Part shown: piece after piece, positions 40,572 to 64,000 of the stretch
Position numbering within the stretch: the stretch's first letter is position 1
How the letters are laid out: the number at the start of each line of letters is the position of its first letter
Source: Anaerolineae bacterium
GTDB taxonomy: Bacteria > Chloroflexota > Anaerolineae > Aggregatilineales > Phototrophicaceae
Length of the DNA: 64,000 bases
NCBI GenBank assembly: GCA_034437555.1
Contig: DAOTTQ010000060.1
Span: 21,073-85,072, forward strand
Reading direction: 5' to 3'
Notes under the pieces: generated by a model
Databases searched by the model: none
Told to the model about the DNA's origin: nothing
Seen by the model: only the letters and a program-made list of their open reading frames with translations
Position numbers and translations under genes: made by a program

Positions 40572-43500
40572 TTATTGAGATTTTGGTGGTACCAAACCGT
40601 TACGGCTGGCATTTTCTTCCGCAGGTGCGTTTTGTGGGTCGCGGTCGTTGGCTTCGTCATTCGTCAGTTGGCTGGCTTCTTGGTCAACCTTAATGGGTGC
40701 GCCATCAATTGGGAGGGCGCTTACACTAAAGATTTCGTTGTTGCCAATCACATCGGATGCGAATACCACTGTGGTGCTTTCGCAAATCCATGTAGGCGCA
40801 GTGTTGATATTGCCTGCGTATTCTTCGGTGTTTTCTGTCAGTAGGCGTGTTGTGCCTGTTGCCACTTCATAGACGTAGATGTCGGGTGTATCGCCATCAG
40901 CATCGGATTGGTACGCAATGAGTGTGTCATCGGGTGACCAAGAGAAGTTACGGGCATCTGCGCCTTCAACGGAGACTTGGGTAATTTCTTGGGTTGCCAA
41001 GTCCATGATGTAGATGATGCTTTGGAGCGCACCATTGGCATCTAGGCTCTCGCCACGGAAGACGATGCGTGTGTTGTCGTTAGAGTATTGCGCATCATGA
41101 TAGTCTACACCTGCAACGGTGCTGGTTAGGCGTGTGACGACAGTGTTATTGAAGTCGGTCACGTCTAGTTCGTAAATTTGCCACAAGCCGTCCTCGCGGT
41201 CGCTTTGGAACAGGAGCTTGGTGCCATTGTCACCCCAGAATGGGTTGATGTCGTTGGCGGGGTTGTCGGTTAGGCGGTACTTTTCGCCCGTGAGCAAGTC
41301 TAGCAAGCGGATTTCCCAGTTGCCGTCCACGTTAGATTCGTATGCCAATTTCGTCCCGTCAGGTGACCATACTGGGTCAAGGTCAATTGCACTGTCGTTA
41401 TAGGTAACGCGTTGTTGGTCTTCTAGTGTACCGTCAACGGGTGAGACATAGATTTCCCAGTTGCCATCACGGTTGCTTGCAAAGGCAAGGAACTTAGCAT
41501 CTGGCGAGCGTGCGGGTCCAATGTCGGAGATACGTTCACCGTAACCCTTAGACATATTGACATCAGCATCTACGTTATAGCCAAAGCCTTCTGGGAACTC
41601 ACCAAGACGGAAGATTTCCCAGTCACCAGTGATGTTCGTGTGGTAGGCAAGCCAGTCCACGCAGATACCTTCGCCTGTAACCACAGGGCGCCAGTCAACA
41701 ACGGGGCGTTCTGTTTGAGGTGCGCAGAACCCGTTGGAGAGGTTAATCATCGGGAAGGTGATGTTCTTGCCACTTCCCATTACCAGTGTTTCACCGCAGA
41801 TACCGACTGTTGGGGGTTCTGTAGGTTCTGGTGTGGGTGTTTGTTCGGGTGTTACGGGTGGTTCATCGTAACAAGTGGGGTCTGTACAGACGGGTGGGGG
41901 AGGTAGCTCACCGCAGGTTAATGCGTGTACAGCATCTACGTCATAGCCATCGACTTCGGCTTCGCCAAAGAAGCCGGCATCCGTGATGTCTACAATCTTG
42001 ATGCGGTCGATATAGCTTAAGCCAGAAACTGCGATATCAAAGGAGCTGTCTAGGAAGGCTGTACCCACAGAGATATAAGCACCACCCTTATAAGCGACGA
42101 ATACTTCGATGCGTTCGGGATAGTTGCTAGGTGTGGGGAGTTGACCATTCACTAGCCACGTGGTTTCAAAGATTTGGAAGTCTGCGCCGGGTTCGTCATA
42201 AAGAACACCGTCGAAGCCAAGTTCGATACTGCCACCCAAGCCAAGCGCATAGAACGTACCTAGTGCATCGCCATCGGGTGTGCCAAGTGCGGCGGCGGGG
42301 TTAGAGCGAATGGGTGCGACTGGGTTACCCAAGTTGGTTAAACCTTGTGATGTTGCAATCACGCGGTTGGGGTAGCACAAGCCTGCTGGAGGAGGCGCAC
42401 ATTCAACGTCGGTTGTTAGTCGTGATTCGGTGTAAGAACCACCGTCAACAATGCCTTCGCTTTGTGCTTCAAAGGTTACGATGCTGTCATAGGCACTAGA
42501 CACAGAGATTTCAACACTTTCACCGCTTGCCAAGAAGAATTCATTGAAAACGGGAGTTAAGTTGACGTTCTTGCTGGTGCTAATGCTAAACGTATCGGGT
42601 TGTAGCATTTCGCCGGGACCCGTGTTTGTTACTGTGAACTTCGCCACGCCATCGCTCTCGCAGATGCCCGTTACCGTTAGGAGGTAAGGTTGTGGTGTAC
42701 ATTCTACAGGACGTTCTAGGCTGTAGATTTGGTTCAAAGGCAATGTACTGTCTTCGCCTGATTGCATTTCGCTCTGGAAGACAACGGTCTTATTCCATTG
42801 GTCGCTGATGCTGAAGCTCTCGCTACTTTCGCCAGCATTCAATTGGAAGCTACCACCGCTAAACAGTACTTCAAACGTGTTTGAATCTACGATAACCACA
42901 TTGTGAGGTAGGAGCATATCACCGTCACCGTTGTTTGTTACAACGAAGCTGGCAACGCCACTCTCGCACAATTCAACCACTACAAGTTCATAAGGTTGGG
43001 GTAGGCAGGTTACGCTGTCTGTTAGAGAGGCTTGTTGGTTGAGCGTGATGTTTGGCTCGCCTTCTGTGCCTTCGTCTAGCGTGCTGTTAAAGTTGGCTTC
43101 GGTATTAAAGACACCGCTTACCACAAACTCGCGCTTTTCACCCGCACTAAGGATGAAGCTACCCAAGTCCACTTCGCCAGCATCGGTTGTGATGCTGTAG
43201 TTATGGGGTGTAAGCATGTCGCCTTCGCCTTGATTGGTCACCAAGAAGCTCAGTTCGCCAGCTTCGCACAAGGATTCGATAGCCAGTGTGTAGGGTTGAG
43301 GTTCACAGTCTACACTACCATCAAGCAAGGTTACATCATAGATTTCACTATCGCCACCTGTGACGCTGAAGGCATATGTTGCGTTCCAAGCGTTAGGTAC
43401 ACTAAAGCTCTTCGATTCATCACTGTTCAATTGGAAGCTGTTGTCATCCAATGTTACAGGTTCGCCGTCTTTTGTGACGCTTACTGTAGCAGAGGAGAGC

Positions 43501-46500
43501 ATGTCGCCTGCACCGTTGTTAGTTACGGTGAGGGTGGCTGTGCCAGCTTCGCAGATGTACTTGGCTTGTAGTTCATAGCGTTCTGGATCGCAGTTAATGC
43601 TCTTATCTAGGTCAGTTACGTTCACAAATTCATCGCCACCCGTTACAGACACACTTACAACTTGGTTAAATGTGACCGTGTTGGCTTGGAAGCTCTTGTT
43701 TTCGCCCGCAGCCAATTGGAAGGCGTTGTCGGCTGGCGTAACGTCTGTGCCGTTTGCGGTAAATGTTACATAGGCTTCGGAGAGCATGTCGCCTGCACCG
43801 TTGTTTGTTACTGTAAACGTGGTTTGTCCTTCAATACATTGATATTCAGACACCAGTTCATAGTCTTGTGGGGCGCAGGTTACTTCTGCTACCAGTGTTT
43901 CATCAGACTTGTAGAAGTAAACCGTTTGGTTGTATTGGTTAGATACAGTAAAGGTTTTGCTTTCGCCAGCCTTTAGTTGATAGTCATTACCTTCGTTGGC
44001 GGTAAGTTCTTCGCCTTCTTCGTTGGTAATGAAGATGCTGTCGCTGTCGAGCATATCACCTGCTGTGCTGCTGTTGGTAATGGTCAATTTAGCCACACCA
44101 TCGCTCTCGCAGATGCTCTTAAAGGTAAGGGCAGGGTCTTTTGGCGGACATTCTGCACTAACGGGTAGCTCGATGCCTTCAACCGTCAGGACAAGCGTTT
44201 CACCCTTTTGGTTGTCGTAGGTGAGTTCTAGCTCGCCTTCACCTGCTAATGTAACGCTACTATTGACTAGTGTGCCAGTAGAGTTGGTTACAGTGTAGCT
44301 CTTGCTTTCCGTCATGGGGAACTTGCTAACATTGGTAATGACAAATGTCACAGAACCGTTAGCATCACAAACACCTGCTGCTGTCAAGCGAGGTTCAACA
44401 CCTTCGCATAAGTTTTCGTTGACTGCCTTCGTTTGTACCAATGTTCCACCTACAAACAAGCGCGTTGTATTTGCGCCGCCGTAAGTGCCGGTGATAGTGA
44501 AGAAGGTGTCGCTGTTGGCTGTGGCTGTGCCAGAACCGTTGGTGGTTGTGCCGAAGACATCCCATGTAAATGGAACATCGAAGTTATTACCGTTACTAAC
44601 ATGGAATTGATGTTCGTTGGGTGTTTGCCAGCAGATAGAAGTAAGCGTTAGGGCAGGGGTACAGCTTGTTGTGCTTGCCGTTACACTTGGGATACCGCCG
44701 CCTGTTGTGCTAAGGCTAAAGATGCCAAAGCCACTAGCATTAACGGTTGTTTCGCCATTCGCTGCAAGGCGAATCGTTTCGGTTGCTACCACATTGTCAC
44801 CAATTTTGATGGTTACGAACATATCTTCTAGCATGTCGCCACCACTATTGGTAAGGGTGAAGGATGCACCCCCATTGGCGCAGATACCTACTGCCCGAAC
44901 AATGGGTTTGGGGTCTTCACATTCCACAGAAGCGGTTAGGTTTCCACCATTGGCATCTGTGCTAAAGGTAATGCTCTTACCTTCTAAACCACTGGCTGTA
45001 AAGGACTTGGATTGTCCTGTGCCGAGTGTGAAGGTGTTGTCGGCAATGGTGACAGGTGCGCCGTCAGAAACTGCGGACACTGTGCCATTAACGGTCATGG
45101 GCCCGCCCACGTTGGCTACGGTAAAGGTTGCTGTGCCATTGGCATCGCAGACCAAACCGCGATTAAGGATGGGTTCGGCAGTAGAAAGGCTGCTGTCTAC
45201 GCGGATATTACGAGGAACAATGCCGTTTGTGCCATCTCTACTGATGAGCATTTGAACGTTGTATGTACCATCAGCATAGGTATGGCAGATTTCTGTTTGT
45301 CCTTCGCCTGTACTGCCATCACCAAAGTTCCAACCAGCGATATTTACACCAGAGGAAACCACGCCGGTGAAACAGACTTCGCCATTGCCACGAATGTCAA
45401 CGTTGAAGTAAGCGGAATCGTCAACGAGGGCAAAGAGTGTTACCTTATTGGTTGCACGACCGTTTAGAACGTCGTTAGCAACACCGAGTGTAACTTGCTT
45501 TTCGCCAACAGTTGGGAAGAAAATACAGGGGTTTTGTTCGTTGCTGGTTGCGGGTTCGCCACCTTCAAACGTCCATTCCCAGCTCGTAATGGGGTTACCC
45601 GTTACAGTGCTTTTGTCTGTAAAGCAGATGGTGCGTGGCGCTACAGCTTCCCATGGGTCAGCAACAAAGCTGGCGATGAGGGATGTTTCACCATAAACCA
45701 CCACGACTACGCTGGCTTCTTGGGTACGTAAAGGACCCACACCTGTAACGCGGATGGTGTATGTACCTGGTTCTGTAAAGACATAGCGACCTTGTTCTGC
45801 GACTTCGCTAGAACCGTCAGGGTAGAACCACTTAAGGGTGCTACGGTTGATATTGACTGTGATTGCATCAAACACAGACACTAAGCCGACAAGCCCACTG
45901 TTGGGGTTGGCTGTTGCGCTAATGCTTTGTGCAGCTTCTACGCGAACATTGGCAGAAACCTCGCACGTTCCGCTACCGTCTACAGTGACACCCACCAAGC
46001 GCAGGTCGATGGAGTTGTTTTCACCGTTGTAAATGGTAGAGAAGTTCGCGTTGTCTTCGCCCACTTGTTCACCATTCAGGTACCAAGTGTAGTTCATTTG
46101 GCGACCGTTGGCGTTGCCTACGTTCACACGGAAGCTCGCATTTTCGCCATTATAGATAGCATCGGGTGCCACGATGGTGCAGGAGAAATTATCTGCGCCA
46201 ATGCTAATGATCTTAGTTTCGGCGCAATAAACTTGCTCGCCAATTTTCACTTCATAGCCAAGGCTAAAAGTAGTGTTGGGTTGTGACATTACATCTGCGG
46301 GGAAATCGAAACGTGAGGCGGTGCTATTTTGTACCGACTCGCCGTTGACTGTCCAGTTGAATGTAAAGCCTGCCAATTCGTAGGCGGTCACATTGACATT
46401 AGCAAAGCCAGAGGTGAAAGGCGCGAAGCTAGAATTGCCACTAAGCGAGCAAACTACTTCTGTTACGCTGACATTCACTGTCTTTGTTAGCACGCAGGCT

Positions 46501-49500
46501 GGGGTTTCAGCACCATCAAGGTAAACTTCAACCTTGGCGGTTTGTGAGCCGTCGATTGTCCATTTGTGGGCAACAGAACCGCCACTATAGCTTTCTTGTC
46601 CTACTTCGTTGATGTACCACTTGTAGGTTGCTACACGTTGTCCCAAATTCTTAAAGGTAACGTTGAAGCTGGTCGTTTGGTTTAGCAACGCCTCAACAAC
46701 GTTTGCGTTTAGTGTACATTCAAGGGCTTTACCCCCTACACCTACTGTTTTGCTTGGGGTACAGACATCGTTACCTCTAGTAATGGTTACTGTAACGTCA
46801 GTGCTACCACTCTCTGGGAAGTAAATGCGCACGTCCCTTGCTGTGGTGCTGTTGAATGTAACACCGTTGGAGCCTGTCCACGAATAGGTAATCCCACCAC
46901 TACCGCCTGAAACATTGGCTCTGTAGTTCTTTGAGCCAAATTGGCTGGCAGAGTTATCCCCACTAATATTACAGGAAAGTGCGCTTGCACCTACTGTAAT
47001 GGTGATGGTTCTTTCGCAGAATGTGCCATCGCTGACGAACAACTTCATCGCAAGGTCAAACACACTGCCAGGTTCTGCAAAGTTGTAGCTAAATGTACTG
47101 CTCGTACCAGAGGCGATGCTTCCTCCACCTTGGCTGCTCAGAGTCCATTCCTTGCTAGTTACAGTACGACCGTTAAGGTTATTTACATTTTGGCTATCAT
47201 AGGTATTGTTACCCAAGAGAGCCGAGATATTGCCCTTAACCGCGCAAGTTACTTGATTGAGCGTCAGGCTTGCAGCACGGCTGATGGAGCAACTTTCTGT
47301 GCCATCAATGAACACCTTTAGCGCAATGCTGTAAGCACCTGCTACAGGGTAGCTGGCAGTGAAGGAACTTGCAGCACCTGTTTGAACGTCACTGGGTGTT
47401 GTAAACGTCCATTCATAGGTGGGTGTGCGTCCTTGTAGGTTACCGATGTTTACCCCGTAGCTCACACTTTGGTTAAATGAGGGGGTTGCACTAAAGCCAG
47501 TAATGCTACAAGAGATATTTCTGTATGCTACCTCGATATTGACGGCTGCGGCTTCTGCCGTACCACCGGGACCTTCAACGCGCAAGTTCACTACAAAAGT
47601 ACCTGCTTGGTTAAAGGTAATGGATGGATTTGCTTGATCAGAAGAGCCAAATTCACCAAACGTCCACGCATAGGTACGAATTGCACCTGTGGTAACCGCT
47701 TGGAAATTGACTGTTTGACCCACGTTTACGCTCGTGTTGCTTGCAGTGATACGCACTGTTGGGGGTTGAATCCCTTCAATGACCTGAAGCAAACGGCTGG
47801 ATGTAGACAAAGAACCACCTGGAATGATGATGGCAAGTTCTACGGTGTAGGTGCCGCCTGCATATTCTTGGCAGACTTCTAAGTCCATCGTGTCTAAGGT
47901 TACGCCGTTACCAAAGTTCCATGAGGCACTGTCATAATCGCCCGCTGTGGTATTGGTAAAGCATACACGGAACAAGTTATCACCGATTTTTTCGGTACGG
48001 GCATCAAATGATGCGCGTGCTGCTTCGCGTTGACCCAAAATGACCACGCTTTGGCTGGCATTTGCCCCGCCACCGGGTCCTTCTACGGTTACGCTAACAT
48101 TAAACGATTGCCCAGAGGTTCCTGTAAAGCGAACAACAAAGGGCCCAGAGGTGCTAGTGTCGCCACTCATCAGTTCGCCACCACCAAAGTTCCAGGCGTA
48201 GCTTGTGATCTCGCCACCACTGTTGTTCACACTAATGGTTGCTTCAAAAGGAGATTGTCCTTCACGAGGACTAATCGTGAGTGAAATGTTTGGACGTGCG
48301 ACTTGTTCAATCACTTGAACAGTACCTGTTGCACGGGCAGTAATCGTGCCATTTGTGGCTTCGAGTGTAATGCTGTAATCGCCAATACCACCATCAAGTA
48401 CAAAGCTGGCTGTTTCTGCCAGTGTAGAGGTGGTGCGTGTTTGGCTATAGCCACCGGGACCCGTTACACTCCAATTATAGGTAAGGGCAGTGCCAGCGGG
48501 GTTGGTGCTGGTGACGTTGGTTAGCACCAAAGTGAAACCATTTTCACCCGAACCGCGATTGGCATTAAAGCCCGCTACGATGATGAGTGAGGTCGCTTCG
48601 CTGGCTGTAACATTGACAGAACCAGTTAGAACGTAGTCTGCACCATTAGCACCACCGCTACCGAGTACGCCATCAGCGACCGCGCAGGTAAGGGTGTAAT
48701 CGTAATTGCCTTCGCCTGTGTAGGTGAATTCGGCATTTTGACCGCTAACGACGTTGCCACCGCCAAAGTCCCATGAGTAGCTTTCGATGTTGTCGCCAGT
48801 TGCGCTAAAGGACACCGTGAAGCTATTCCCACTTTGGGTATAAGAGGGAGCGTTGATAGCGCAAGAGGAGCCAGGGGCTGCCACGACAACACCAACGTCA
48901 ATAGGGGTTGTAGCCGTTGGGTTTTCACCTTCGCTAAAAAGCACTGTCAGGCTGATGGTATAAATACCGGCGCTGGCATAGGTGTGTGTGGGGTTTTGTT
49001 CGGTGCTGGTTGTGCCATCACCAAATGACCAACTGTAGCCTGTAATGCCTTCACCCGTACCAGAACCGCTAAAGCTCACGGTTAAGCCGTTGATAGAAGC
49101 ATCAATGCTGGCAGTTCTCGCTTCAGCAATAAGTTCGAGTTCAGCTTGAACCACGGGTTCAGCTACAGGTTCACTGACACTGAATGTGTTAGAAGCCATG
49201 GGGCGTGCGCCATTGCTAAAAATGACCGTGAGGCTAACAGAGTAATCGCCCGCACTGCCATAAGTGTGGGTGGGGTTTTGTTCGGTGCTGGTTGCGCCAT
49301 CACCAAATGACCACTCATAACCTGTAATGTCACCACCTGCGCCAGAACCGCTAAAGCTCACGGTTAAGCCGTCAGTGTTACCGTTGAGGGTAGCAACTTT
49401 GTTGGGGCAACCAAATTGGTCTACACCCGTACCAAAGGCATCGCCTAAAGAGGGGCAGAGGTCACTATAAACGCCGTCACCGTCATCATCAGGGGGACAG

Positions 49501-49988
49501 CCCGGTTGTTCAGCAGAGTTACCTGCAATGCTAGGACACAAATCTTGGTCGTTAAGAACGCCATCGCCGTCATCGTCGGGCCCGCTTGGTGGGGGAGGAA
49601 GTTCGCCACCATCAACGGGAGGGGCTTCACCACCATCAGGTGGGGGAGGAAGTTCGCCACCATCAGGTGGGGGAGGAAGTTCACCACCATCAACGGGAGG
49701 GGGTGTCACTTCACCGCCATCAGGGGGGGGAGGAAGTTCGCCACCATCAGGGGGAGTTTCACCACCGTCAACGGGAGGCTTGTCTGCGTCAGGGGCTGGT
49801 GTTTCTTCGCCACCATCGCGGAAAACAGCTGTCGCAACTTCAGATGCCTGCGTTGCTTCAGGAGTAATTGCGCTGGCGACTTGTCGTCCATCTTCTCCAC
49901 CTTGATTGTTGGAGACAATGAACAACGCACCGAGCAACACCACAAAGGCGACTGCGCCTACTATGATATATTGCGTGCTACGCTTCAT
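40572..49988 (-). CDS. Giant (3138 aa) N-terminally anchored surface protein: Pro-rich stalk, TSP3-like Ca-binding repeats, 16 PKD-like modules, 10 Cys-bracketed CARDB/DUF11-like modules, an unassigned domain, and a TolB-like PD40 beta-propeller
   Basis: TM anchor YIIVGAVAFVVLLGALFIV, then the DGGELPPPP repeats, then DDDGDGVLNDQDLCP and DDDGDGVYSDLCP. A PKD consensus example is WSFGDGTTSTEQNPTHTYASAGIYTISLTV. PD40 blades include FASNRDGNWEIYV, YESNVDGNWEIRLLDL and FQSDREDGLWQIYEL. Confidence 0.9.
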   Translation of the reverse strand: MKRSTQYIIVGAVAFVVLLGALFIVSNNQGGEDGRQVASAITPEATQASEVATAVFRDGGEETPAPDADKPPVDGGETPPDGGELPPPPDGGEVTPPPVDGGELPPPPDGGELPPPPDGGEAPPVDGGELPPPPSGPDDDGDGVLNDQDLCPSIAGNSAEQPGCPPDDDGDGVYSDLCPSLGDAFGTGVDQFGCPNKVATLNGNTDGLTVSFSGSGAGGDITGYEWSFGDGATSTEQNPTHTYGSAGDYSVSLTVIFSNGARPMASNTFSVSEPVAEPVVQAELELIAEARTASIDASINGLTVSFSGSGTGEGITGYSWSFGDGTTSTEQNPTHTYASAGIYTISLTVLFSEGENPTATTPIDVGVVVAAPGSSCAINAPSYTQSGNSFTVSFSATGDNIESYSWDFGGGNVVSGQNAEFTYTGEGNYDYTLTCAVADGVLGSGGANGADYVLTGSVNVTASEATSLIIVAGFNANRGSGENGFTLVLTNVTSTNPAGTALTYNWSVTGPGGYSQTRTTSTLAETASFVLDGGIGDYSITLEATNGTITARATGTVQVIEQVARPNISLTISPREGQSPFEATISVNNSGGEITSYAWNFGGGELMSGDTSTSGPFVVRFTGTSGQSFNVSVTVEGPGGGANASQSVVILGQREAARASFDARTEKIGDNLFRVCFTNTTAGDYDSASWNFGNGVTLDTMDLEVCQEYAGGTYTVELAIIIPGGSLSTSSRLLQVIEGIQPPTVRITASNTSVNVGQTVNFQAVTTGAIRTYAWTFGEFGSSDQANPSITFNQAGTFVVNLRVEGPGGTAEAAAVNIEVAYRNISCSITGFSATPSFNQSVSYGVNIGNLQGRTPTYEWTFTTPSDVQTGAASSFTASYPVAGAYSIALKVFIDGTESCSISRAASLTLNQVTCAVKGNISALLGNNTYDSQNVNNLNGRTVTSKEWTLSSQGGGSIASGTSSTFSYNFAEPGSVFDLAMKLFVSDGTFCERTITITVGASALSCNISGDNSASQFGSKNYRANVSGGSGGITYSWTGSNGVTFNSTTARDVRIYFPESGSTDVTVTITRGNDVCTPSKTVGVGGKALECTLNANVVEALLNQTTSFNVTFKNLGQRVATYKWYINEVGQESYSGGSVAHKWTIDGSQTAKVEVYLDGAETPACVLTKTVNVSVTEVVCSLSGNSSFAPFTSGFANVNVTAYELAGFTFNWTVNGESVQNSTASRFDFPADVMSQPNTTFSLGYEVKIGEQVYCAETKIISIGADNFSCTIVAPDAIYNGENASFRVNVGNANGRQMNYTWYLNGEQVGEDNANFSTIYNGENNSIDLRLVGVTVDGSGTCEVSANVRVEAAQSISATANPNSGLVGLVSVFDAITVNINRSTLKWFYPDGSSEVAEQGRYVFTEPGTYTIRVTGVGPLRTQEASVVVVVYGETSLIASFVADPWEAVAPRTICFTDKSTVTGNPITSWEWTFEGGEPATSNEQNPCIFFPTVGEKQVTLGVANDVLNGRATNKVTLFALVDDSAYFNVDIRGNGEVCFTGVVSSGVNIAGWNFGDGSTGEGQTEICHTYADGTYNVQMLISRDGTNGIVPRNIRVDSSLSTAEPILNRGLVCDANGTATFTVANVGGPMTVNGTVSAVSDGAPVTIADNTFTLGTGQSKSFTASGLEGKSITFSTDANGGNLTASVECEDPKPIVRAVGICANGGASFTLTNSGGDMLEDMFVTIKIGDNVVATETIRLAANGETTVNASGFGIFSLSTTGGGIPSVTASTTSCTPALTLTSICWQTPNEHQFHVSNGNNFDVPFTWDVFGTTTNGSGTATANSDTFFTITGTYGGANTTRLFVGGTLVQTKAVNENLCEGVEPRLTAAGVCDANGSVTFVITNVSKFPMTESKSYTVTNSTGTLVNSSVTLAGEGELELTYDNQKGETLVLTVEGIELPVSAECPPKDPALTFKSICESDGVAKLTITNSSTAGDMLDSDSIFITNEEGEELTANEGNDYQLKAGESKTFTVSNQYNQTVYFYKSDETLVAEVTCAPQDYELVSEYQCIEGQTTFTVTNNGAGDMLSEAYVTFTANGTDVTPADNAFQLAAGENKSFQANTVTFNQVVSVSVTGGDEFVNVTDLDKSINCDPERYELQAKYICEAGTATLTVTNNGAGDMLSSATVSVTKDGEPVTLDDNSFQLNSDESKSFSVPNAWNATYAFSVTGGDSEIYDVTLLDGSVDCEPQPYTLAIESLCEAGELSFLVTNQGEGDMLTPHNYSITTDAGEVDLGSFILSAGEKREFVVSGVFNTEANFNSTLDEGTEGEPNITLNQQASLTDSVTCLPQPYELVVVELCESGVASFVVTNNGDGDMLLPHNVVIVDSNTFEVLFSGGSFQLNAGESSESFSISDQWNKTVVFQSEMQSGEDSTLPLNQIYSLERPVECTPQPYLLTVTGICESDGVAKFTVTNTGPGEMLQPDTFSISTSKNVNLTPVFNEFFLASGESVEISVSSAYDSIVTFEAQSEGIVDGGSYTESRLTTDVECAPPPAGLCYPNRVIATSQGLTNLGNPVAPIRSNPAAALGTPDGDALGTFYALGLGGSIELGFDGVLYDEPGADFQIFETTWLVNGQLPTPSNYPERIEVFVAYKGGAYISVGTAFLDSSFDIAVSGLSYIDRIKIVDITDAGFFGEAEVDGYDVDAVHALTCGELPPPPVCTDPTCYDEPPVTPEQTPTPEPTEPPTVGICGETLVMGSGKNITFPMINLSNGFCAPQTERPVVDWRPVVTGEGICVDWLAYHTNITGDWEIFRLGEFPEGFGYNVDADVNMSKGYGERISDIGPARSPDAKFLAFASNRDGNWEIYVSPVDGTLEDQQRVTYNDSAIDLDPVWSPDGTKLAYESNVDGNWEIRLLDLLTGEKYRLTDNPANDINPFWGDNGTKLLFQSDREDGLWQIYELDVTDFNNTVVTRLTSTVAGVDYHDAQYSNDNTRIVFRGESLDANGALQSIIYIMDLATQEITQVSVEGADARNFSWSPDDTLIAYQSDADGDTPDIYVYEVATGTTRLLTENTEEYAGNINTAPTWICESTTVVFASDVIGNNEIFSVSALPIDGAPIKVDQEASQLTNDEANDRDPQNAPAEENASRNGLVPPKSQ
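40659..41681 (-). other. TolB-like PD40 beta-propeller region of the giant protein (about aa 2770-3110)
   Basis: At least six (F/Y)xS(N/D)xDGxxEI(Y/F)-type blades were read in the translation. Confidence 0.7.
42399..45155 (-). repeat. Ten tandem ~92-aa Cys-bracketed protein modules (aa ~1612-2530)
   Basis: Each module starts with C(E/D/A)xxG.(A/T).(F/L)T(V/I/L)TN.G.GDML and ends with ..(V/I/S).C.P(Q/K/E)(P/D)Y/A. Module 3 is divergent. Confidence 0.8.
45156..49391 (-). repeat. Array of 16 PKD-like Ig-fold modules (aa ~200-1611)
   Basis: Counted by the recurring (Y/W)xW(S/T/N)(F/V)G.G cores: YEWSFGDG, YSWSFGDG, YSWDFGGG, YNWSVTGPG, YAWNFGGG, ASWNFGNG, YAWTFGEFG, and so on. Confidence 0.75.
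49588..49769 (-). repeat. In-frame tandem nucleotide repeat (27-nt unit with 21-30-nt variants) encoding (V)DGGE(L/V/A/T)PPP(P)
   Basis: Plus strand reads ggtgggggaggaagttcgccaccatc, reiterated four times near-identically, with interspersed aacgggagg... variants. Confidence 0.85.
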
Positions 49989-56288: not shown

Positions 56289-56705
56289 ATGATTACAAAA
56301 AAACAAATTAGCTTAAAAGAAGCCCAACAACTCATTTATAGTGTGCAATCACAACTTGAAATTGAACAAAAGGGAGCTGCCATTGCCATTGTTGACGAAC
56401 ACGGCGAATTGATTGCTTTTGCCCGTACAGATACTTGTCCACTGCCTTCTGTTACCATTGCTATCAATAAAGCCTACACTGCCTCTCGTGAACGTAAGTC
56501 CAGCAGAGAACTCGGTGACGCTTCACGAACCTATGGCTTTCCGTTAACCAACTTTGGCGAATTACGCTATGTCGGCTGGGGCGGTGGGTTTCCTATTTGG
56601 CATGATGGCACAATCATCGGTGCTATTGGCGTAAGTGGCTTGCCAGAAGAAGAAGACATGGCACTTGCGACCCAAGCCATTAACGAACTAAAATTTGAGC
56701 AATAA
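56289..56705 (+). CDS. GlcG/HbpS-like (DUF336) haem-binding protein
   Basis: AAIAIVDEHGELIAFARTD, AINKAYTA and GGGFPIWHDGTIIGAIGVSG. Confidence 0.75.
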   Translation: MITKKQISLKEAQQLIYSVQSQLEIEQKGAAIAIVDEHGELIAFARTDTCPLPSVTIAINKAYTASRERKSSRELGDASRTYGFPLTNFGELRYVGWGGGFPIWHDGTIIGAIGVSGLPEEEDMALATQAINELKFEQ

Positions 56706-59833: not shown

Positions 59834-61369
59834 ATGTCTAAGAAACCTGTTATGCTCATCATCTTGGATGGTTTGGGCATCCGCGAGATGGAAGAAGGCA
59901 ATGCCGTAAAATTGGCTAATATGCCCCATTACAACCAATGGATGAAAACACTAGAACGCTCTATTTTAGATGCTAGTGAAGAAGCTGTTGGTTTGATTGC
60001 AGGTCAAATGGGAAATTCAGAGGTGGGTCATCTTAATTTAGGTGCCGGTCGTGTGGTATATCAAGATATTTCGCGTATAGATGTTGCTGTCCGTGACCGT
60101 GAGCTATATACACACCCACAGCTTTTAGAGGCTTTTGCCTATGCTGAACAACATAGTTCTAAAGTCCACGTTATCGGCTTGCTAAGTGATGGCGGTGTAC
60201 ATAGTCATGAACGCCATTTGTATGCCCTTTTAGACGTGCTTAAAGGGGTTAAGATACGCCCAATTTTGCATGTGATTACAGATGGTCGTGACACGCCTAC
60301 AACAAGCGGTATGGGCTTTGTAGAGCGTTTAGAGGGGCATATATCACAAGACCAAAGTGCCATTATTGCTAGTGTTTCTGGTCGTTATTATGCGATGGAC
60401 AGAGACAATCGCTGGGAGCGTGTTTCACAAGCCTATGATGCGATGGTATGGCATCAATCACCTACTGTTGCCGAAACTGCTACCGAAGCCGTACGCCAAT
60501 CCTATGCCGAAAATGTAATGGACGAGTTCATCCACCCTACAATAATTAAACAACAAGAAGATGTGCGTATTTCGCCCCATGACGTAGTGATTTTCTTCAA
60601 CTATCGTTCAGACAGAATGCGTGAGTTAGTAAAAACGCTGATTTACCCAGAGATTGATGGCTTTACGGGTAATTTTGTGCCAAATATAGACATAGTTACT
60701 TTCACATCCTACGACGATACTTACCCCGTAAACGTGCTATTTCGCAAAGATTCTTTAGAGTACGTTTTGGCTCAAGTGGTTAGTGAATCGGGTCTAACAC
60801 AGTACCACAGTGCAGAAACTGAAAAATACCCTCATGTAACTTTCTTTTTTAATGGGGGACGCGAGGAAAGTTTTCAGGGTGAAGACCGTCGTATTATTCC
60901 CTCACCTAAAGTTGCAACCTATGACCTTCAGCCAGAAATGAGTGCGTATGAACTAGCAGAAGCTACTTTAGAACGCCTTCAATCTTATGATGATGGTTTT
61001 CTACTCATTAACTTTGCTAACCCTGATATGGTAGGACACACAGGTTCACTTTCTGCTGCTATTAAAGCTGTGGAGACCGTTGACACTTGTGCGGCTCGTT
61101 TGGTAGATGCAGTGTTAGCAAAAGGCGGTGTTGCCCTTGTAACTGCTGACCATGGCAATTGTGAGCGTATGGTAGAGCTTTCTACGGGTGAATCTCATAC
61201 TTACCACACAACCAACCCTGTTTCTTTTTTCGTTATTGGTGAGGGCTATTATCAGCTCTGCGCGCGTGGCAAACTCGCTGATGTTGCTCCTACCGTGTTA
61301 GACTTATTAGGGCTAGAGAAACCTAAGCAAATGACAGGTGACTCTTTGATACTATCTCATCGTCAATAA
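59834..61369 (+). CDS. gpmI: 2,3-bisphosphoglycerate-independent phosphoglycerate mutase
   Basis: MSKKPVMLIILDGLGI, NSEVGHLNLGAGR, LLSDGGVHSH, ITDGRDT and TADHGN. ATG 59834 is preferred over the track start of 59792. Confidence 0.9.
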   Translation: MSKKPVMLIILDGLGIREMEEGNAVKLANMPHYNQWMKTLERSILDASEEAVGLIAGQMGNSEVGHLNLGAGRVVYQDISRIDVAVRDRELYTHPQLLEAFAYAEQHSSKVHVIGLLSDGGVHSHERHLYALLDVLKGVKIRPILHVITDGRDTPTTSGMGFVERLEGHISQDQSAIIASVSGRYYAMDRDNRWERVSQAYDAMVWHQSPTVAETATEAVRQSYAENVMDEFIHPTIIKQQEDVRISPHDVVIFFNYRSDRMRELVKTLIYPEIDGFTGNFVPNIDIVTFTSYDDTYPVNVLFRKDSLEYVLAQVVSESGLTQYHSAETEKYPHVTFFFNGGREESFQGEDRRIIPSPKVATYDLQPEMSAYELAEATLERLQSYDDGFLLINFANPDMVGHTGSLSAAIKAVETVDTCAARLVDAVLAKGGVALVTADHGNCERMVELSTGESHTYHTTNPVSFFVIGEGYYQLCARGKLADVAPTVLDLLGLEKPKQMTGDSLILSHRQ

Positions 61370-61388
61370 TGTTTCGTAGGAGGGTACT

Positions 61389-61877
61389 GTGAAGCGCATT
61401 CAGCCTAAAGAAGGTCAAGAATCTGTATGGGATTATCCACGCCCACCGCGTGTTGAAGCTGTTAAAAGCCGCTTGCGTGTTATTTTTAATGGCATCACTT
61501 TGGCTGATACAGTCAATGGTTTTCGTGTGCTAGAAACAAGCCATCCTCCTGCGTACTACCTTCCTCAGGACGATATTCAGATGCAATATCTGGTGCGTGT
61601 GCCGCGTCAAACTTTTTGTGAGTTTAAAGGAATGGCAAATTATTGGACGCTTCGTGTGGGCAATCAAGAAGTACCTGACGTGGCGTGGATGTATGCCTCA
61701 CCCAATAAAGGCTTTCAGCAAATTGCCAATCATTTGTGCTTTTATGCTAGCCGTGTAGAGGCGTGTTTTGTTGGTGACGAGCAGGTAACACCCCAAGATG
61801 GTGACTTTTATGGCGGATGGATTACGTCTTCTGTGGTGGGTCCTTTTAAGGGAGGCGTGCGAACTTGGGGTTGGTAG
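61389..61877 (+). CDS. DUF427-domain protein
   Basis: WDYPRPPRVE, ETSHPPAYYLPQDDI and CEFKGMANYW match the DUF427 pattern. GTG start. Confidence 0.7.
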   Translation: MKRIQPKEGQESVWDYPRPPRVEAVKSRLRVIFNGITLADTVNGFRVLETSHPPAYYLPQDDIQMQYLVRVPRQTFCEFKGMANYWTLRVGNQEVPDVAWMYASPNKGFQQIANHLCFYASRVEACFVGDEQVTPQDGDFYGGWITSSVVGPFKGGVRTWGW

Positions 61878-64000
61878 AAGCTATTTTTAGGTTTTGTTAG
61901 GAGACTTTGCCGAAAATGCTTGCGTGATTGGGTTAATTCGTGTTATTCTATTTCAAGTGTTGCTTTCGCAGTTCTATTTTACGGATTTCCTTTCTCTTTT
62001 CGCTGTCTGTTATCTAATAGCTCTTTGGTGTTTTCGTTTAAGAGTTTTGCAGTTTAGTTAACAAACAGAATGGTACTCGGCGTATGGATAAAAAAATGTC
62101 CATGTTGCACCCCGTTTAACATGGACATCCATTCGTTTGGTCGCCTTTTGGGCAACGAAAAGAGAAACAAAAAAGATTGAAGCAGATTCAGTCACTATTA
62201 TATCTTAGAGAGGGGGGTTGTTACAAGTGATTTTAGTACAGATAATGCGCCTAAACCAAAATAATCACGCTATTGCTCTCCAAAATATGGGAGAAAAAGA
62301 GAGCAATGATTATTTTGGTGCGCTTGGGGAAAGCGCATCGTCTCTGTACAAGCAAGGTTTTAACGTCTTTCCGCAACCGTTCAAGAGAAAATCGGGGTAC
62401 TCTTGGCAACCTTTGCAGATTGTAAGACTTTCGAATAAGTCATACCCACACTTTACAGACATTATCAGTGGGTATGTTAATTTAGCGGTGATGTGTGGTC
62501 GCACAAGCAATAATCTTTTTGTTTTGGACTGCGAATCACCAGAATCTTTGAACTATCATATGGAACAGCTACGCGCCCGCAAAATACCGCTTTATGTGTC
62601 AAAAACAGCGCGTGGTGGTCATATTTATCTTTTTTGCGCATCAGGTGAAGTCCATAACATCAAGTCGGGGGTAATTAAAGATATTGAAGTACGTGGGCGT
62701 AATCTATACGTACTCGCCCCACCCTCTTTACACCCTTCGGGCGCACCGTATGAATGGCTTATTCGCCAGTCGGATAAACCGCCCACTGTGAGCGTACAAG
62801 ATATTGATTGGTTGATGGATAAAAGAGGCAACTCTGTTCCGCTACAAGCCAACGCTCGTGGAAAGCATGGCTCTGTTCCACATTTATCACTTATTTCACC
62901 TTACTCGTCGCTTTCTAATACGACCCGTGATTACATTAAAAACGGGCATCTTATCCCAGAGGGCTACCGCAACAACGCGCTCTTTAGCGCAGCCTGCGAT
63001 ATGGTAGGTAATCACTATACCTATTCAGAAGTTTCTTCGATGCTTTGTACGCCTGCTCAACTAAGCGGGCTATTGCTTGATGAAATAGAAGCCACTATTC
63101 AAAGCGCGTTTAGCCGTCCGCGCGAGCCTGCTCGTAAGATAAACCCGCGCCTTAAAGAACAACAAAATAACGAAACGACATGGCAGCTAGCGATGGCGTT
63201 TGCTTCAAAATACGATTGGTCTTTTTCGTATGGCAATAATTTCCGAGCGTTGTTTCTTGCCTTAGTAGAACGTTGCCGTTTAGGAAGCAACTCTAAGGGT
63301 ATTTTTAGGGCGAGTATTCGTGAACTAGCAGAATTAGCACGCATGGGCATTAACACGGTTCAGCGACTGCTTAAAAAGTTTATAAAACTTAATCTGATTC
63401 TTTCTAGCGGTACTGATAAAGTCAGTAGCGCAAACCTTTGGATGTTCACAGATGACGTGCTTGCTAAGGCAAAAAAGCTAGTTTTGGCTGATAAAGCCTT
63501 CCGTTTGCCCTCCCATTGGCTAGATTTTACGCAAGCGATGAAACAAAGTGATGCGTCCGAAAGTGGTGCAATGGGCAGGGGCGCAATGTTCCTTTATCAG
63601 TTTATGAAGGCAACTAAACGTGCAATGTTACCTAGTGCGTTGTCTGTTGCTTCTGGTATGACGCTGAATCAGGTGAACTATGCATTGTCTAAACTTCGTG
63701 AGTTGGGACTTGTAACACGCCATATTTTAGGCTGGTATCCTGTTTGCTATTCGCTAGATGAGTTAACACAGCATGTTTTATACCAACGCCCACGCATTAA
63801 AGGGCGCGGTGAACGCCGTAAACAACGGTTTTTGAACGCACGTCAGGCGTTTGTGTCGCGTGTTATTTATATTGCGCGTCAAGTTTCTGATGGCATAAAG
63901 AATCCTTATATGGTAAGACCGAACCTTTTGCGTGTGGATGAGGCAGATGAGGATATAAAAGCTTTGTTTAGGTCACATCAGGTACAAAAAGAATTGCAAA
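61878..64000 (+). mobile_element. Probable edge of an integrated mobile element or plasmid-like replication module (AT-rich leader plus PrimPol gene); extends beyond the window
   Basis: There is an abrupt switch from housekeeping genes to an AT-rich ~350-nt non-coding stretch and a PrimPol/PriCT-1 replication gene. No integrase or att repeat is visible within the window. Confidence 0.4.
62227..64000 (+). CDS. Bifunctional DNA primase/polymerase (AEP PrimPol) N-terminal domain + PriCT-1-like domain + wHTH-like C-terminal region; 3' end beyond the window
   Basis: This ORF is not in the supplied track. I translated it by hand and found 591 sense codons from GTG 62227 (stop TAG at 62206-62208 upstream, GAGAGGGGGG 9 nt upstream) to nt 64000. 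Motifs: NLFVLDCES (Asp 62527-62529, Glu 62533-62535), TARGGHIYLF (His 62620-62622), IEVRGRNLYVLAPPSLHPSGAPYEW, and PriCT-1-like GYRNNALFSAACDM. Confidence 0.75.
   Translation, partial: MILVQIMRLNQNNHAIALQNMGEKESNDYFGALGESASSLYKQGFNVFPQPFKRKSGYSWQPLQIVRLSNKSYPHFTDIISGYVNLAVMCGRTSNNLFVLDCESPESLNYHMEQLRARKIPLYVSKTARGGHIYLFCASGEVHNIKSGVIKDIEVRGRNLYVLAPPSLHPSGAPYEWLIRQSDKPPTVSVQDIDWLMDKRGNSVPLQANARGKHGSVPHLSLISPYSSLSNTTRDYIKNGHLIPEGYRNNALFSAACDMVGNHYTYSEVSSMLCTPAQLSGLLLDEIEATIQSAFSRPREPARKINPRLKEQQNNETTWQLAMAFASKYDWSFSYGNNFRALFLALVERCRLGSNSKGIFRASIRELAELARMGINTVQRLLKKFIKLNLILSSGTDKVSSANLWMFTDDVLAKAKKLVLADKAFRLPSHWLDFTQAMKQSDASESGAMGRGAMFLYQFMKATKRAMLPSALSVASGMTLNQVNYALSKLRELGLVTRHILGWYPVCYSLDELTQHVLYQRPRIKGRGERRKQRFLNARQAFVSRVIYIARQVSDGIKNPYMVRPNLLRVDEADEDIKALFRSHQVQKELQ

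Follow-up and report, generated by a model that had tools for sequence, protein, structure and literature searches.

A chromosomal plasmid-style PrimPol gene of Anaerolineae bacteria and a predicted antisense RNA over its 5' end

Bacterial archaeo-eukaryotic primases (AEPs) with a PriCT-1 domain and the HTH architecture of initiators are considered almost exclusively mobile-element genes; the arrangement AEP, PriCT-1 and HTH without a helicase is that of ColE2, RepE/RepS and PrimHYQ, while RSF1010 RepB' comprises an AEP and a PriCT-1 domain (PMC5862659). In ColE2 replicons, the Rep primase is accompanied by an upstream antisense RNA directed against the 5' UTR of rep (PMC5304414). The pSYSA replicon of Synechocystis, whose Rep protein CyRepA1 (Slr7037) has a primase domain, is controlled by asRNA1, an abundant RNA of ~150 nt with three stem-loops (PMC9978351). 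The primase-polymerase ORF904, encoded by the archaeal plasmid pRN1 of Sulfolobus, has an SF3 helicase at its C-terminus and no tandem wHTH domains. The rep genes of the Inc18 plasmids (pAMbeta1, pIP501 and pSM19035) are also under counter-transcribed RNA control.

We analysed a PrimPol gene at the right edge of a 64-kb stretch of Anaerolineae (Chloroflexota) DNA, hereafter the window. By analogy, the layout of the locus matches that of a ColE2-type Rep primase with an antisense RNA for copy control, in this case fixed in a chromosome. Like the Rep proteins of ColE2/ColE3 (class C theta), which are AEP-type primases with PriCT-1 and HTH, the PrimPol combines these parts on one polypeptide without a helicase, and the predicted RNA resembles RNAI in size and in its multi-stem-loop shape. 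Unlike those genes, it has a syntenic chromosomal location, and its product, at 613-619 aa, is roughly double the length, having two wHTH domains and an extended C-terminus; no ColE2-type plasmid occurred among its tblastn matches. The uniform AEP, PriCT-1 and HTH arrangement, with no helicase in the protein or element, is also shared with RepE/RepS of Inc18 and with PrimHYQ (PMC5862659), but those families are borne by plasmids and other mobile elements, and the Pfam matches of our PrimPol are only to the generic Prim-Pol and PriCT_1 models. A tblastn search of 72,556 plasmids gave seven matches, all confined to the AEP domain at no more than 32% identity and none from a ColE2 or Inc18 plasmid, so that no homology to ColE2 Rep or RepE was detected in this set beyond the generic AEP domain. 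ORF904 is the best structural match of the N-terminal half and has the same catalytic motifs, but differs in its helicase and its wHTH content and shares 14-20% identity. CyRepA1 is similar in being a primase-domain Rep of an antisense-controlled replicon, but it has a helicase domain and is plasmid-borne, and asRNA1 acts on a distinct small ORF/primer transcript upstream, not on the rep 5' UTR.

The plus-strand frame is open without a break from 62209 to nt 64000, immediately after a TAG at 62206-62208, and our translation of 62206-64000 gave 597 codons when counted from 62209 and 591 when counted from 62227. An earlier sequence-only reading had noticed this long sense ORF, with 591 codons following that TAG, as missing from the list of ORFs, in which short antisense ORFs are the sole entries over the region, and had explained the omission by the lack of a stop inside the window; it was correct in each respect. 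The full-length protein is present in a public collection as two exact matches, P0001 and P0121, and the complete gene is carried by contig L047, which is 99.93% identical to window positions 61025-64000. Candidate starts are the GTG at 62227 (619 aa, P0121), the ATG at 62245 (613 aa, P0001) and a TTG at 62218. The stop lies 86 nt beyond the window, and because only 28 codons remain outside, no helicase/NTPase or other domain is fused to the PrimPol. The ORF is thus a real, intact, plasmid-style replication primase gene. The window's copy has lost the ancestral ATG, and the TAG interrupts the old N-terminus.

Table 1. Features of the PrimPol locus, in nucleotide positions of the window
Feature	Position	Strand	Basis
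PrimPol-PriCT-1-wHTH-wHTH gene	62227..64000, cut by window edge; true stop at window-equivalent 64086	+	Open frame, exact-match proteins, L047
Prim-Pol catalytic domain (archaeo-eukaryotic primase)	62344..62766	+	Pfam PF09250, motifs, Foldseek, PHROGs
PriCT-1 helical bundle	62953..63117	+	Pfam PF08708, AF2 model, 3m1m match
wHTH 1, replication-initiator type	63295..63402	+	Pfam HTH_Crp_2 and HTH_24 (sub-threshold), PHROGs, AF2
wHTH 2, MarR-like	63610..63720	+	Pfam MarR_2, HTH_20 and IclR (sub-threshold), PDB profiles, Foldseek
Antisense promoter	62197..62226; -35 TTGTAA 62226-62221, 18-nt spacer, -10 TATAAT 62202-62197	-	Promoter scan, alignment
Predicted cis-antisense small RNA, ~102 nt	62089..62190	-	Promoter and terminator geometry; complementary to PrimPol 5' UTR
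Terminator-type hairpin	62096..62128; 11-bp stem (62128-62118 with 62106-62096), loop 62117-62107	-	Covariation, CM
Tentative PrimPol mRNA promoter (TTGCGT, 17 nt, TTATTC/TATTCT)	61920..61949	+	Weak

The domain order proposed from the letters alone, with PrimPol motifs followed by PriCT-1 and two wHTH segments, agrees with Pfam and with a confident structure model, and all the motifs quoted were found (GFNVFPQP, NLFVLDCES, TARGGHIYLFC, IEVRGRNLYVLAPPSLHPSGAPYEW, GYRNNALFSAACDM, IRELAELARMGINTVQRLLKKF and LSVASGMTLNQVNYALSKLRELGLV). The profile check suggested with that proposal placed both domains above their cut-offs, with PF09250 scoring 56.8 bits where 22.8 are required, over positions 4-148 of the 158 in the profile, and PF08708 (PriCT_1) scoring 26.1 bits where 21.1 are required. 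Numbered as in P0001, motif I is D95-x-E97 (VLD95-C-E97, nt 62527-62535), motif II is H126 (GGH126, nt 62620-62622) and motif III is E148 (IE148, nt 62686-62688), in agreement with the published AEP definitions hhhDhD/E, sxH and hD/E (PMC5862659), and none of D95, E97, H126 and E148 varies among 44 family members. PHROGs labelled the catalytic domain as a DNA primase. The best Foldseek matches of the AF2 model (pLDDT 85) were the pRN1 ORF904 primase-polymerase structures 1rni and 3m1m (probability 1.00), with an rmsd of 3.6 A over 191 columns for 1rni, supporting an AEP fold; the match to 3m1m spans both the primase and the helix bundle, which in the model is a four-helix region (residues 225-289) directly following the AEP domain.

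Sub-threshold Pfam wHTH matches are located at residues 352-387 and 457-493. For the first wHTH, PHROGs returned 'replication initiation O-like' and 'DnaD-like helicase loader' on residues 308-393, and the model has a helix-helix-strand-strand wing with pLDDT >90; for the second, a PDB profile search matched residues 446-506 to MarR-type wHTH proteins, and Foldseek matched MarR and ZitR structures. The protein ends in a basic tail. An NCBIfam search of the PrimPol gave no model, and membership in a defence system was rejected, PADLOC giving only a chance-level wHTH match and NCBIfam none.

A promoter directed against the gene overlaps the PrimPol start region, within the first dozen codons, and scored 10 of 12 consensus matches in the promoter scan. 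The arrangement TTGTnn, exactly 18 nt and TATAAT/TATACT is present in all 26 aligned loci, and also in L028, L030 and L033, and synonymous-site conservation in this region is 0.73-0.76, compared with a mean of 0.47. The window keeps the boxes and their spacing despite its lost ATG and broken N-terminus, and the constraint therefore acts on the DNA, not on the protein. The tentative promoter of the PrimPol mRNA is conserved only between the window and L001/L005 (alignment A2) and was missed by the consensus scan.

At a variable distance of 60-150 nt from the antisense promoter, a hairpin is found whose loop, 8-31 nt in length, contains an invariant GGGGUG, followed on the minus strand by a T(U)-run. 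This is the only strong instance in the window; in the loci compared, the hairpin occurs upstream of PrimPol in 26 and nowhere else in 627 kb searched. All 28 complete loci at 41% identity or more have an opposite-strand promoter reading across the 5' UTR towards a covarying hairpin and a U-run. Double changes were observed in 10 of the 11 stem pairs, 96.9% of the cells were paired (28-44% in slid controls), and the covariation score was reached by none of 500 shuffles. For this analysis the loci were aligned by motif-anchored extraction, as MAFFT alignment of whole intergenic regions misplaced the hairpin. The CM gave 28 matches of 34-63 bits, one per orthologous locus and two of them untrained (window, 54.1 bits), and no match in ~1.1 Mb of other DNA. 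The element is thus strictly linked to the PrimPol gene.

Several features assign the hairpin to the minus strand. Non-Watson-Crick stem positions are minus-strand wobbles 21 times and a plus-strand wobble once, and in 24 of the 26 loci the hairpin folds more stably on the minus strand (p ~1e-5; minus-strand mean -18.4 kcal/mol). The stable stem-loop, the T-rich run after it in the alignment consensus and the promoter upstream agree with an intrinsic terminator. A plus-strand role, either as terminator of DUF427 or as a 5'-UTR structure, was rejected, since on that strand the homopolymer run precedes the hairpin and 21 of the 26 non-canonical positions are A-C. The analysis thus predicts a conserved and previously undescribed antisense small RNA over the PrimPol 5' end, with an inferred transcription start at ~62190, a 3' end in the U-run at 62095-62089, a length across loci of ~100-190 nt and, in the window, a fold of three stem-loops (-25.9 kcal/mol). 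No Rfam 15 family was matched, the sole hit being a chance-level fragment of GOLLD (13.9 bits; gathering score 150). As a pure cis-antisense RNA would have no obvious need for an invariant loop, the conservation suggests recognition of the hairpin by some partner, such as a protein.

The gene lies in the Anaerolineae chromosome between DUF427 and a Bmp/PnrA substrate-binding gene and has been inherited with these neighbours over long evolutionary distances. The order iPGM, DUF427, PrimPol, Bmp is kept in relatives whose PrimPol proteins are only 51-52% identical, and PrimPol divergence correlates with that of the adjacent iPGM (r=0.78) and of DUF427 (r=0.82). The sequence-only reading had described the architecture as typical of initiators of plasmids and mobile elements, in agreement with PMC5862659, and the chromosomal residence is therefore notable. 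It had also proposed an integrated mobile element starting at ~61.9 kb, with cargo beyond the window, neither of which is supported. The right flank, available from contigs 99.9% identical to the window, contains the end of PrimPol, a terminator after its stop, the convergent Bmp/PnrA gene (minus strand), a gene for a 520-aa hypothetical protein and a response-regulator-like gene. No integrase or recombinase was found beside PrimPol in the window organism, L001 or L005, no tRNA in the window or in seven loci, no flanking direct repeat around PrimPol in L047, and no composition shift at PrimPol (GC 0.40-0.46, equal to the neighbours). No full-length PrimPol relative was found in the 72,556 plasmids, in 50,697 phages or in IMG/VR viral contigs. 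Conserved synteny without integrase or boundaries, which had been named beforehand as evidence against a mobile element, is what the relatives display.

Some observations do fit an integrated ICE, prophage or satellite that starts on the left with PrimPol as its replication module and has its remaining genes to the right. Besides the nearly exclusive mobile-element origin reported for bacterial AEPs (PMC5862659) and the initiator architecture, distant paralogs (L039-L045, 28-33% identity) lie amid many small unique ORFs, with cluster-17 Phage_integrase-type genes near L044 and L045, the latter confirmed by Pfam, and a Pfam-confirmed tyrosine recombinase is located ~2.8 kb downstream of PrimPol in one of 28 orthologous loci (L030). 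In L133, whose iPGM is 66% identical, iPGM and DUF427 are present and PrimPol is missing after DUF427. However, with the right flank syntenic at 51% PrimPol identity, divergence following that of the housekeeping neighbours, and integrase, tRNA, att-like repeat, GC shift and full-length mobile relatives missing from the data sets above, a mobile element is highly improbable, the reading being already largely refuted: PrimPol has long resided in the chromosomes of Anaerolineae bacteria and does not mark the edge of such an element. Its occurrence was further surveyed. PrimPol is present in every syntenic relative found through the protein search, L132 and L134 have no PrimPol within 10 kb of iPGM, and a single MAG has two copies (L031 and L033). 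Among 80 metagenome loci anchored on DUF427, none had PrimPol, iPGM or Bmp nearby, and that scan is therefore uninformative on the presence or absence of PrimPol. A functional pairing of DUF427 with PrimPol was rejected, DUF427 being adjacent in only about one-third of the loci.

We consider it fairly probable that the locus encodes an initiator-style chromosomal primase-polymerase throttled by a cis-encoded antisense RNA; the production of the RNA, the repression, the DNA target and the cellular role are what we infer here. The minus-strand promoter in the first PrimPol codons would give rise to an RNA that spans the start region together with the entire 5' UTR and ends at a factor-independent terminator, the hairpin with the GGGGUG loop. 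By analogy with ColE2 RNAI and plasmid counter-transcripts, this loop would contact its complement in the mRNA leader, a CACCCC loop, and nucleate a duplex, which would block translation initiation, cause mRNA decay, or both, with possible further interference from convergent transcription. The protein would most likely act like ColE2 Rep and RepE-type proteins, the wHTH domains binding a specific DNA site, with PriCT-1 helping to melt the bound site before the PrimPol domain lays the primer.

Alternatively, the hairpin may primarily be a DNA-level cis site, namely an operator bound by protein or a single-strand-initiation (ssi) or origin hairpin formed by minus-strand DNA. PrimPol would then read the GGGGTG loop and prime beside it, and antisense transcription would open or activate the site instead of yielding a regulatory RNA. 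This would account for why the stem base (GTCC/GGAC) and the loop (GGGGTG) are invariant across very divergent loci, which pure antisense action does not require, and why non-coding conservation at the locus is confined to the hairpin and promoter region; the G-T wobble asymmetry would suit single-stranded minus-strand DNA as well as RNA. The primase of pRN1, the closest structural relative, uses its helix bundle to read a GTG motif in the template, and RSF1010 RepB' primes at ssi hairpins. We nevertheless regard a DNA site as rather unlikely, as a promoter of the sigma-70 type whose spacer is always 18 nt, followed at a variable distance by a hairpin with a T-run, bears the signature of a discrete transcription unit, the loop varies widely in length, and GC skew is ambiguous. 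In the origin test based on GC skew and gene orientation, the mean shift was from -0.019 to +0.020 (p=0.015 without phylogenetic correction), skew followed gene orientation, and in the window's own clade (L001 and L005) it runs the opposite way. A domesticated repair or damage-tolerance PrimPol, comparable to eukaryotic PrimPol and bacterial LigD-type AEPs, would reprime or fill gaps anywhere without site-specific initiation, and the antisense RNA would keep a potentially mutagenic enzyme at low levels. A chromosomal, vertically inherited and catalytically intact enzyme fits such a role, as does the lack of conserved origin-like DNA downstream of PrimPol, and repair roles of PrimPols are documented (PMC4538821, PMC11724360). 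It is unlikely, however, given that two wHTH domains (one of O/DnaD initiator type) with PriCT-1 are a hallmark of site-specific initiators (PMC5862659), that the neighbourhood lacks a conserved ligase, Ku or nuclease partner, and that PrimPol is patchily distributed among relatives. The candidate cis sites for PrimPol are the upstream hairpin and an internal block of synonymous conservation near 63500-63560; that a domesticated plasmid-type initiator module uses one of these to fire a DnaA-independent origin on the host replicon, or to replicate a large chromid whose housekeeping genes include iPGM, appears improbable.

With its intact catalytic centre and predicted plasmid-style antisense RNA retained, and inherited with housekeeping neighbours across deep divergence, the PrimPol subfamily looks like a domesticated replication module. 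As a practical warning, a PrimPol, PriCT and wHTH gene at a contig edge does not on its own constitute evidence of an integrated element. The promoter embedded in the coding sequence constrains the PrimPol N-terminus more than protein function does, and the predicted antisense RNA would represent a new small-RNA family, readily open to testing, from a phylum that has received little study. The PrimPol itself is a candidate for DnaA-independent or auxiliary initiation, or for regulated repriming, in Chloroflexota.

Translation of 62206-64000 gave a plus-strand frame that, after an in-frame TAG, remained open up to the window edge and contained all the motifs quoted by a sequence-only reading, which had proposed an unlisted gene for a replication protein (PrimPol) at this position. 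As that reading presumed, the mechanical ORF list skips PrimPol because it has no stop inside the window; contigs 99.9% identical to the window (L047-L050) supply the stop and show that 28 codons lie beyond the edge, with no further domain fused. The proposed domains, Prim-Pol, PriCT-1 and two winged helix-turn-helices (wHTH), also proved correct, given the Pfam matches to Prim-Pol (56.8 bits; cut-off, 22.8) and PriCT_1 (26.1 bits; cut-off, 21.1) and a confident AlphaFold model (pLDDT 85, pTM 0.72); two winged-helix matches, at residues 352-387 and 457-493, were sub-threshold. The model was built from an alignment of 44 family members (37-49% identity to the window protein), in which D95, E97, H126 and E148, representing AEP motifs I, II and III, were invariant. 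Structure comparison showed that its N-terminal half resembles the pRN1 ORF904 primase-polymerase, including the helix bundle, and its C-terminal half a tandem of winged helices of the MarR type, while residues 308-393 were similar to phage 'replication initiation O-like' and DnaD-like initiator domains in PHROGs. No NCBIfam model covers the protein, and PADLOC gave nothing meaningful for it. That it belongs to the AEP/Prim-Pol superfamily and has PriCT-1 is established, and it shares its helicase-free architecture, AEP, PriCT-1 and HTH, with the ColE2 Rep, RepE/RepS and PrimHYQ initiators (Kazlauskas et al., PMC5862659). The ancestral start codon, which aligns with the ATG of the related loci L001 and L005, reads ACT in the window, where the TAG also breaks the old reading frame, and the start has accordingly shifted downstream. 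The protein appears in the public collection as 613 aa (P0001, from the ATG) or 619 aa (P0121, from the GTG), depending on the pipeline; its first 21 residues had low confidence in the structure model.

We found the same hairpin upstream of PrimPol in the window and in relatives whose intergenic DNA otherwise fails to align. On the plus strand its loop is GCACCCCGTTT and an A-run lies 5' of it; on the minus strand, GGGGTG is invariant within the loop and a T-run follows directly 3'. A structure-aware scan of both strands of 627 kb located strong instances only upstream of PrimPol (26 loci), with a single one in the 64-kb window and none alongside distant paralogs. Likewise, a covariance model gave 28 matches of 34-63 bits, one per orthologous locus and two of them outside the training set, with no other match in 696 kb and none in 493 kb of additional loci that lack PrimPol. 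In an unfitted MAFFT alignment of the minus strand, double changes occurred in 10 of the 11 pairs and 96.9% of cells were paired, compared with 28-44% in slid controls, and the observed score was reached in 0 of 500 shuffles. Among the non-Watson-Crick stem positions (n = 26), 21 were A-C on the coding strand, equivalent to G-U wobbles on the opposite strand, and 1 was the reverse; the hairpin was more stable as the minus strand in 24 of 26 loci (-18.4 vs -14.4 kcal/mol, p about 1e-5). The hairpin is flanked by a 20-nt inverted repeat, 85% complementary with pyrimidine-rich and purine-rich arms. These arms could pair over a long distance within the leader of the PrimPol mRNA, giving a helix that the antisense RNA would disrupt; the repeat shows no obvious conservation in L001 and L005 and may be due to chance.

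In all 26 loci, the minus strand carries a promoter 60-150 nt upstream of the hairpin, composed of TTGTnn, a spacer of exactly 18 nt and TATAAT or TATACT, which is present too in the loci L028, L030 and L033. It overlaps the first dozen codons of PrimPol, and what looks like a conserved start of the protein, IIPH.....QV, is the reverse complement of this promoter; in the window, both boxes and their spacing are intact despite the ACT and the interrupting TAG. Both boxes were outliers in a synonymous-site scan. The hairpin and promoter constitute a predicted conserved antisense transcription unit, whose putative transcripts across loci are 94-188 nt long and fold into 2-4 stem-loops. Rfam contains no family matching this predicted RNA, which is a new family. 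Separately, a block between the two wHTH domains showed excess synonymous-site conservation (0.77 vs mean 0.47), as strong as that of the embedded promoter and at orthologous positions in L007-L035, with the consensus ...CCC CCC CAC TGG TTA AGn TnT AGT GnG TCT nTT TTC AAT..., a C-run of 6-8 and rare codons that are fixed. Most orthologs show the block strongly, the clade of the window, L001 and L005 more weakly, and it could serve as a cis site within the gene, as an RNA signal or as a slippery run. ColE2 relatives can have the origin inside rep.

Features at and around the PrimPol locus (window positions)
Feature	Position	Strand	Remarks
GlpD-like oxidase	4846-6537		
Sensor kinase, 1896 aa	6720-12410	+	five GAF, several PAS domains
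Acetyl-CoA synthetase	15562-17469		
3138-aa protein	40572-49988	-	PKD repeats, PD40/beta-propeller domains
HbpS-like haem-degrading protein	56289-56705		between MFS_3 and response regulator
20-nt inverted repeat	61986-62005/62153-62172		
Predicted antisense RNA	~62190 to 62089	-	~102 nt
Hairpin	62096-62128		perfect 11-bp stem, ~100 nt upstream of start codon
Antisense promoter	62226-62197	-	also flagged by promoter scan
In-frame TAG	62206-62208	+	
Possible PrimPol starts	TTG 62218, GTG 62227 or ATG 62245	+	region 62194-62247
Internal conserved block	~63500-63560		
PrimPol stop	64086 (window-equivalent)	+	
Perfect 14-bp inverted repeat	64182-64213 (window-equivalent; L047:3158-3189)		AAAAAACGGGTGCA/TGCACCCGTTTTTT, between PrimPol stop and convergent Bmp
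Shared order up to PrimPol			CHASE2 kinase, hypothetical, MFS_3(-), response regulator, Y_phosphatase3, histidine kinase, iPGM, DUF427, PrimPol
Shared order after PrimPol			Bmp(-), ~515-aa hypothetical, two-component genes, amylases

Because the locus is organised like a rep gene under the control of a counter-transcribed RNA, as in ColE2 and pSYSA, we infer that the most likely workings are antisense control of an initiator: the minus-strand RNA would pair with the leader and start region of PrimPol, nucleated through a GGGGUG/CACCCC loop contact, and would limit translation or mRNA stability, and the protein would serve as a site-specific initiator primase. In ColE2 replicons, Rep is a primase that also unwinds DNA and is repressed post-transcriptionally by a small antisense RNA, encoded upstream, that is complementary to the rep mRNA 5' UTR (PMC5304414); in Synechocystis, pSYSA has a primase-domain Rep together with a ~150-nt antisense RNA of three stem-loops (PMC9978351). 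The main rival explanation is that the hairpin acts at the DNA level, as an 'ssi/origin hairpin'. It is retained because the loop and the base of the stem are invariant, which suggests that another partner, possibly the PrimPol protein itself, recognises the hairpin. Origin-activity tests were negative or ambiguous, with no conserved origin-like DNA found downstream of PrimPol and an equivocal GC skew around the gene that runs in the opposite direction in the window's clade. With its predicted antisense RNA, PrimPol resembles a ColE2 or Inc18-type Rep and ctRNA module but, unlike those families, is not plasmid- or MGE-borne and shares no sequence-level homology with them past generic domains.

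The suggestion that an integrated mobile element with cargo begins at about 61.9 kb was unsupported. The closest PrimPol relatives share only 51-52% protein identity, yet have the same gene order as the window, and the window's own right flank (L047-L050) continues with the 14-bp inverted repeat, which is a classic bidirectional intrinsic terminator, followed by a Bmp/PnrA substrate-binding gene in convergent orientation and a hypothetical gene of 520 aa. tRNAs were absent from the window and from seven related loci, and neither direct repeats bracketing PrimPol nor a GC shift at the gene was found. Synteny fades gradually over the 35 named genome loci, almost all of which come from MAGs of Anaerolineae or other Chloroflexota, with iPGM within 10 kb of PrimPol in about half, DUF427 adjoining it in about one-third, and Bmp with its ABC transporter downstream in 11; pairwise identities of PrimPol correlate with those of its neighbours iPGM (r=0.78) and DUF427 (r=0.82). 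Full-length relatives were absent from 72,556 plasmid and 50,697 phage records, and IMG/VR gave one distant AEP-domain match. PrimPol is not universal, and its distribution among relatives is patchy: with iPGM as anchor, L133 (iPGM 66% identical) was found to keep iPGM and DUF427 with PrimPol absent from the slot, and two further relatives had no PrimPol within 10 kb of iPGM. In addition, a recombinase with a Pfam-confirmed Phage_integrase domain lies ~2.8 kb from PrimPol in the orthologous locus L030, and one MAG (JACAER01) has two orthologous-subfamily copies, L031 and L033, both with the antisense promoter, reflecting either duplication or a mixed bin.

Several other observations concern the neighbourhood. 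In the window, 45-57 kb separate PrimPol from the genes for the GlpD-like oxidase and acetyl-CoA synthetase, and homologues of these (clusters 9 and 22) are within a few genes of it elsewhere (L013, L024, L027, L031 and L032), which hints at a wider ancestral neighbourhood. L001 and L005, syntenic in other respects, have no HbpS-like gene between MFS_3 and the response regulator. A TIR_2 and FGE-sulfatase gene (~510-540 aa) is directly downstream of PrimPol in L007 and L009 and one gene further in L015 and L019, with ThsA_Macro, TIR and TIR-WD40 genes upstream in L009; this recurrence probably represents lineage synteny or a defence island. The 3138-aa and 1896-aa proteins are typical large Chloroflexota surface or signalling proteins.

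Distant paralogs (L039-L045; 28-33% identity) are surrounded by many small unique ORFs and carry neither hairpin nor antisense promoter; cluster-17 tyrosine-recombinase genes lie near L044 and L045, the latter with a Pfam-confirmed Phage_integrase domain. Both PrimPol types occur within one MAG (L032 and L041). These paralogs are likely mobile-element cousins and, based on their small unique ORFs and nearby recombinases, the chromosomal subfamily is suggested to descend from such cousins. Since bacterial AEPs of this kind are reported to be nearly exclusively MGE-borne (PMC5862659), a syntenic chromosomal subfamily keeping putative antisense control would be a new variant, for which auxiliary or primary origin firing, chromid replication and regulated repriming are candidate roles. 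The conserved predicted antisense RNA and apparent domestication make the PrimPol locus of greater interest than an ordinary prophage edge.
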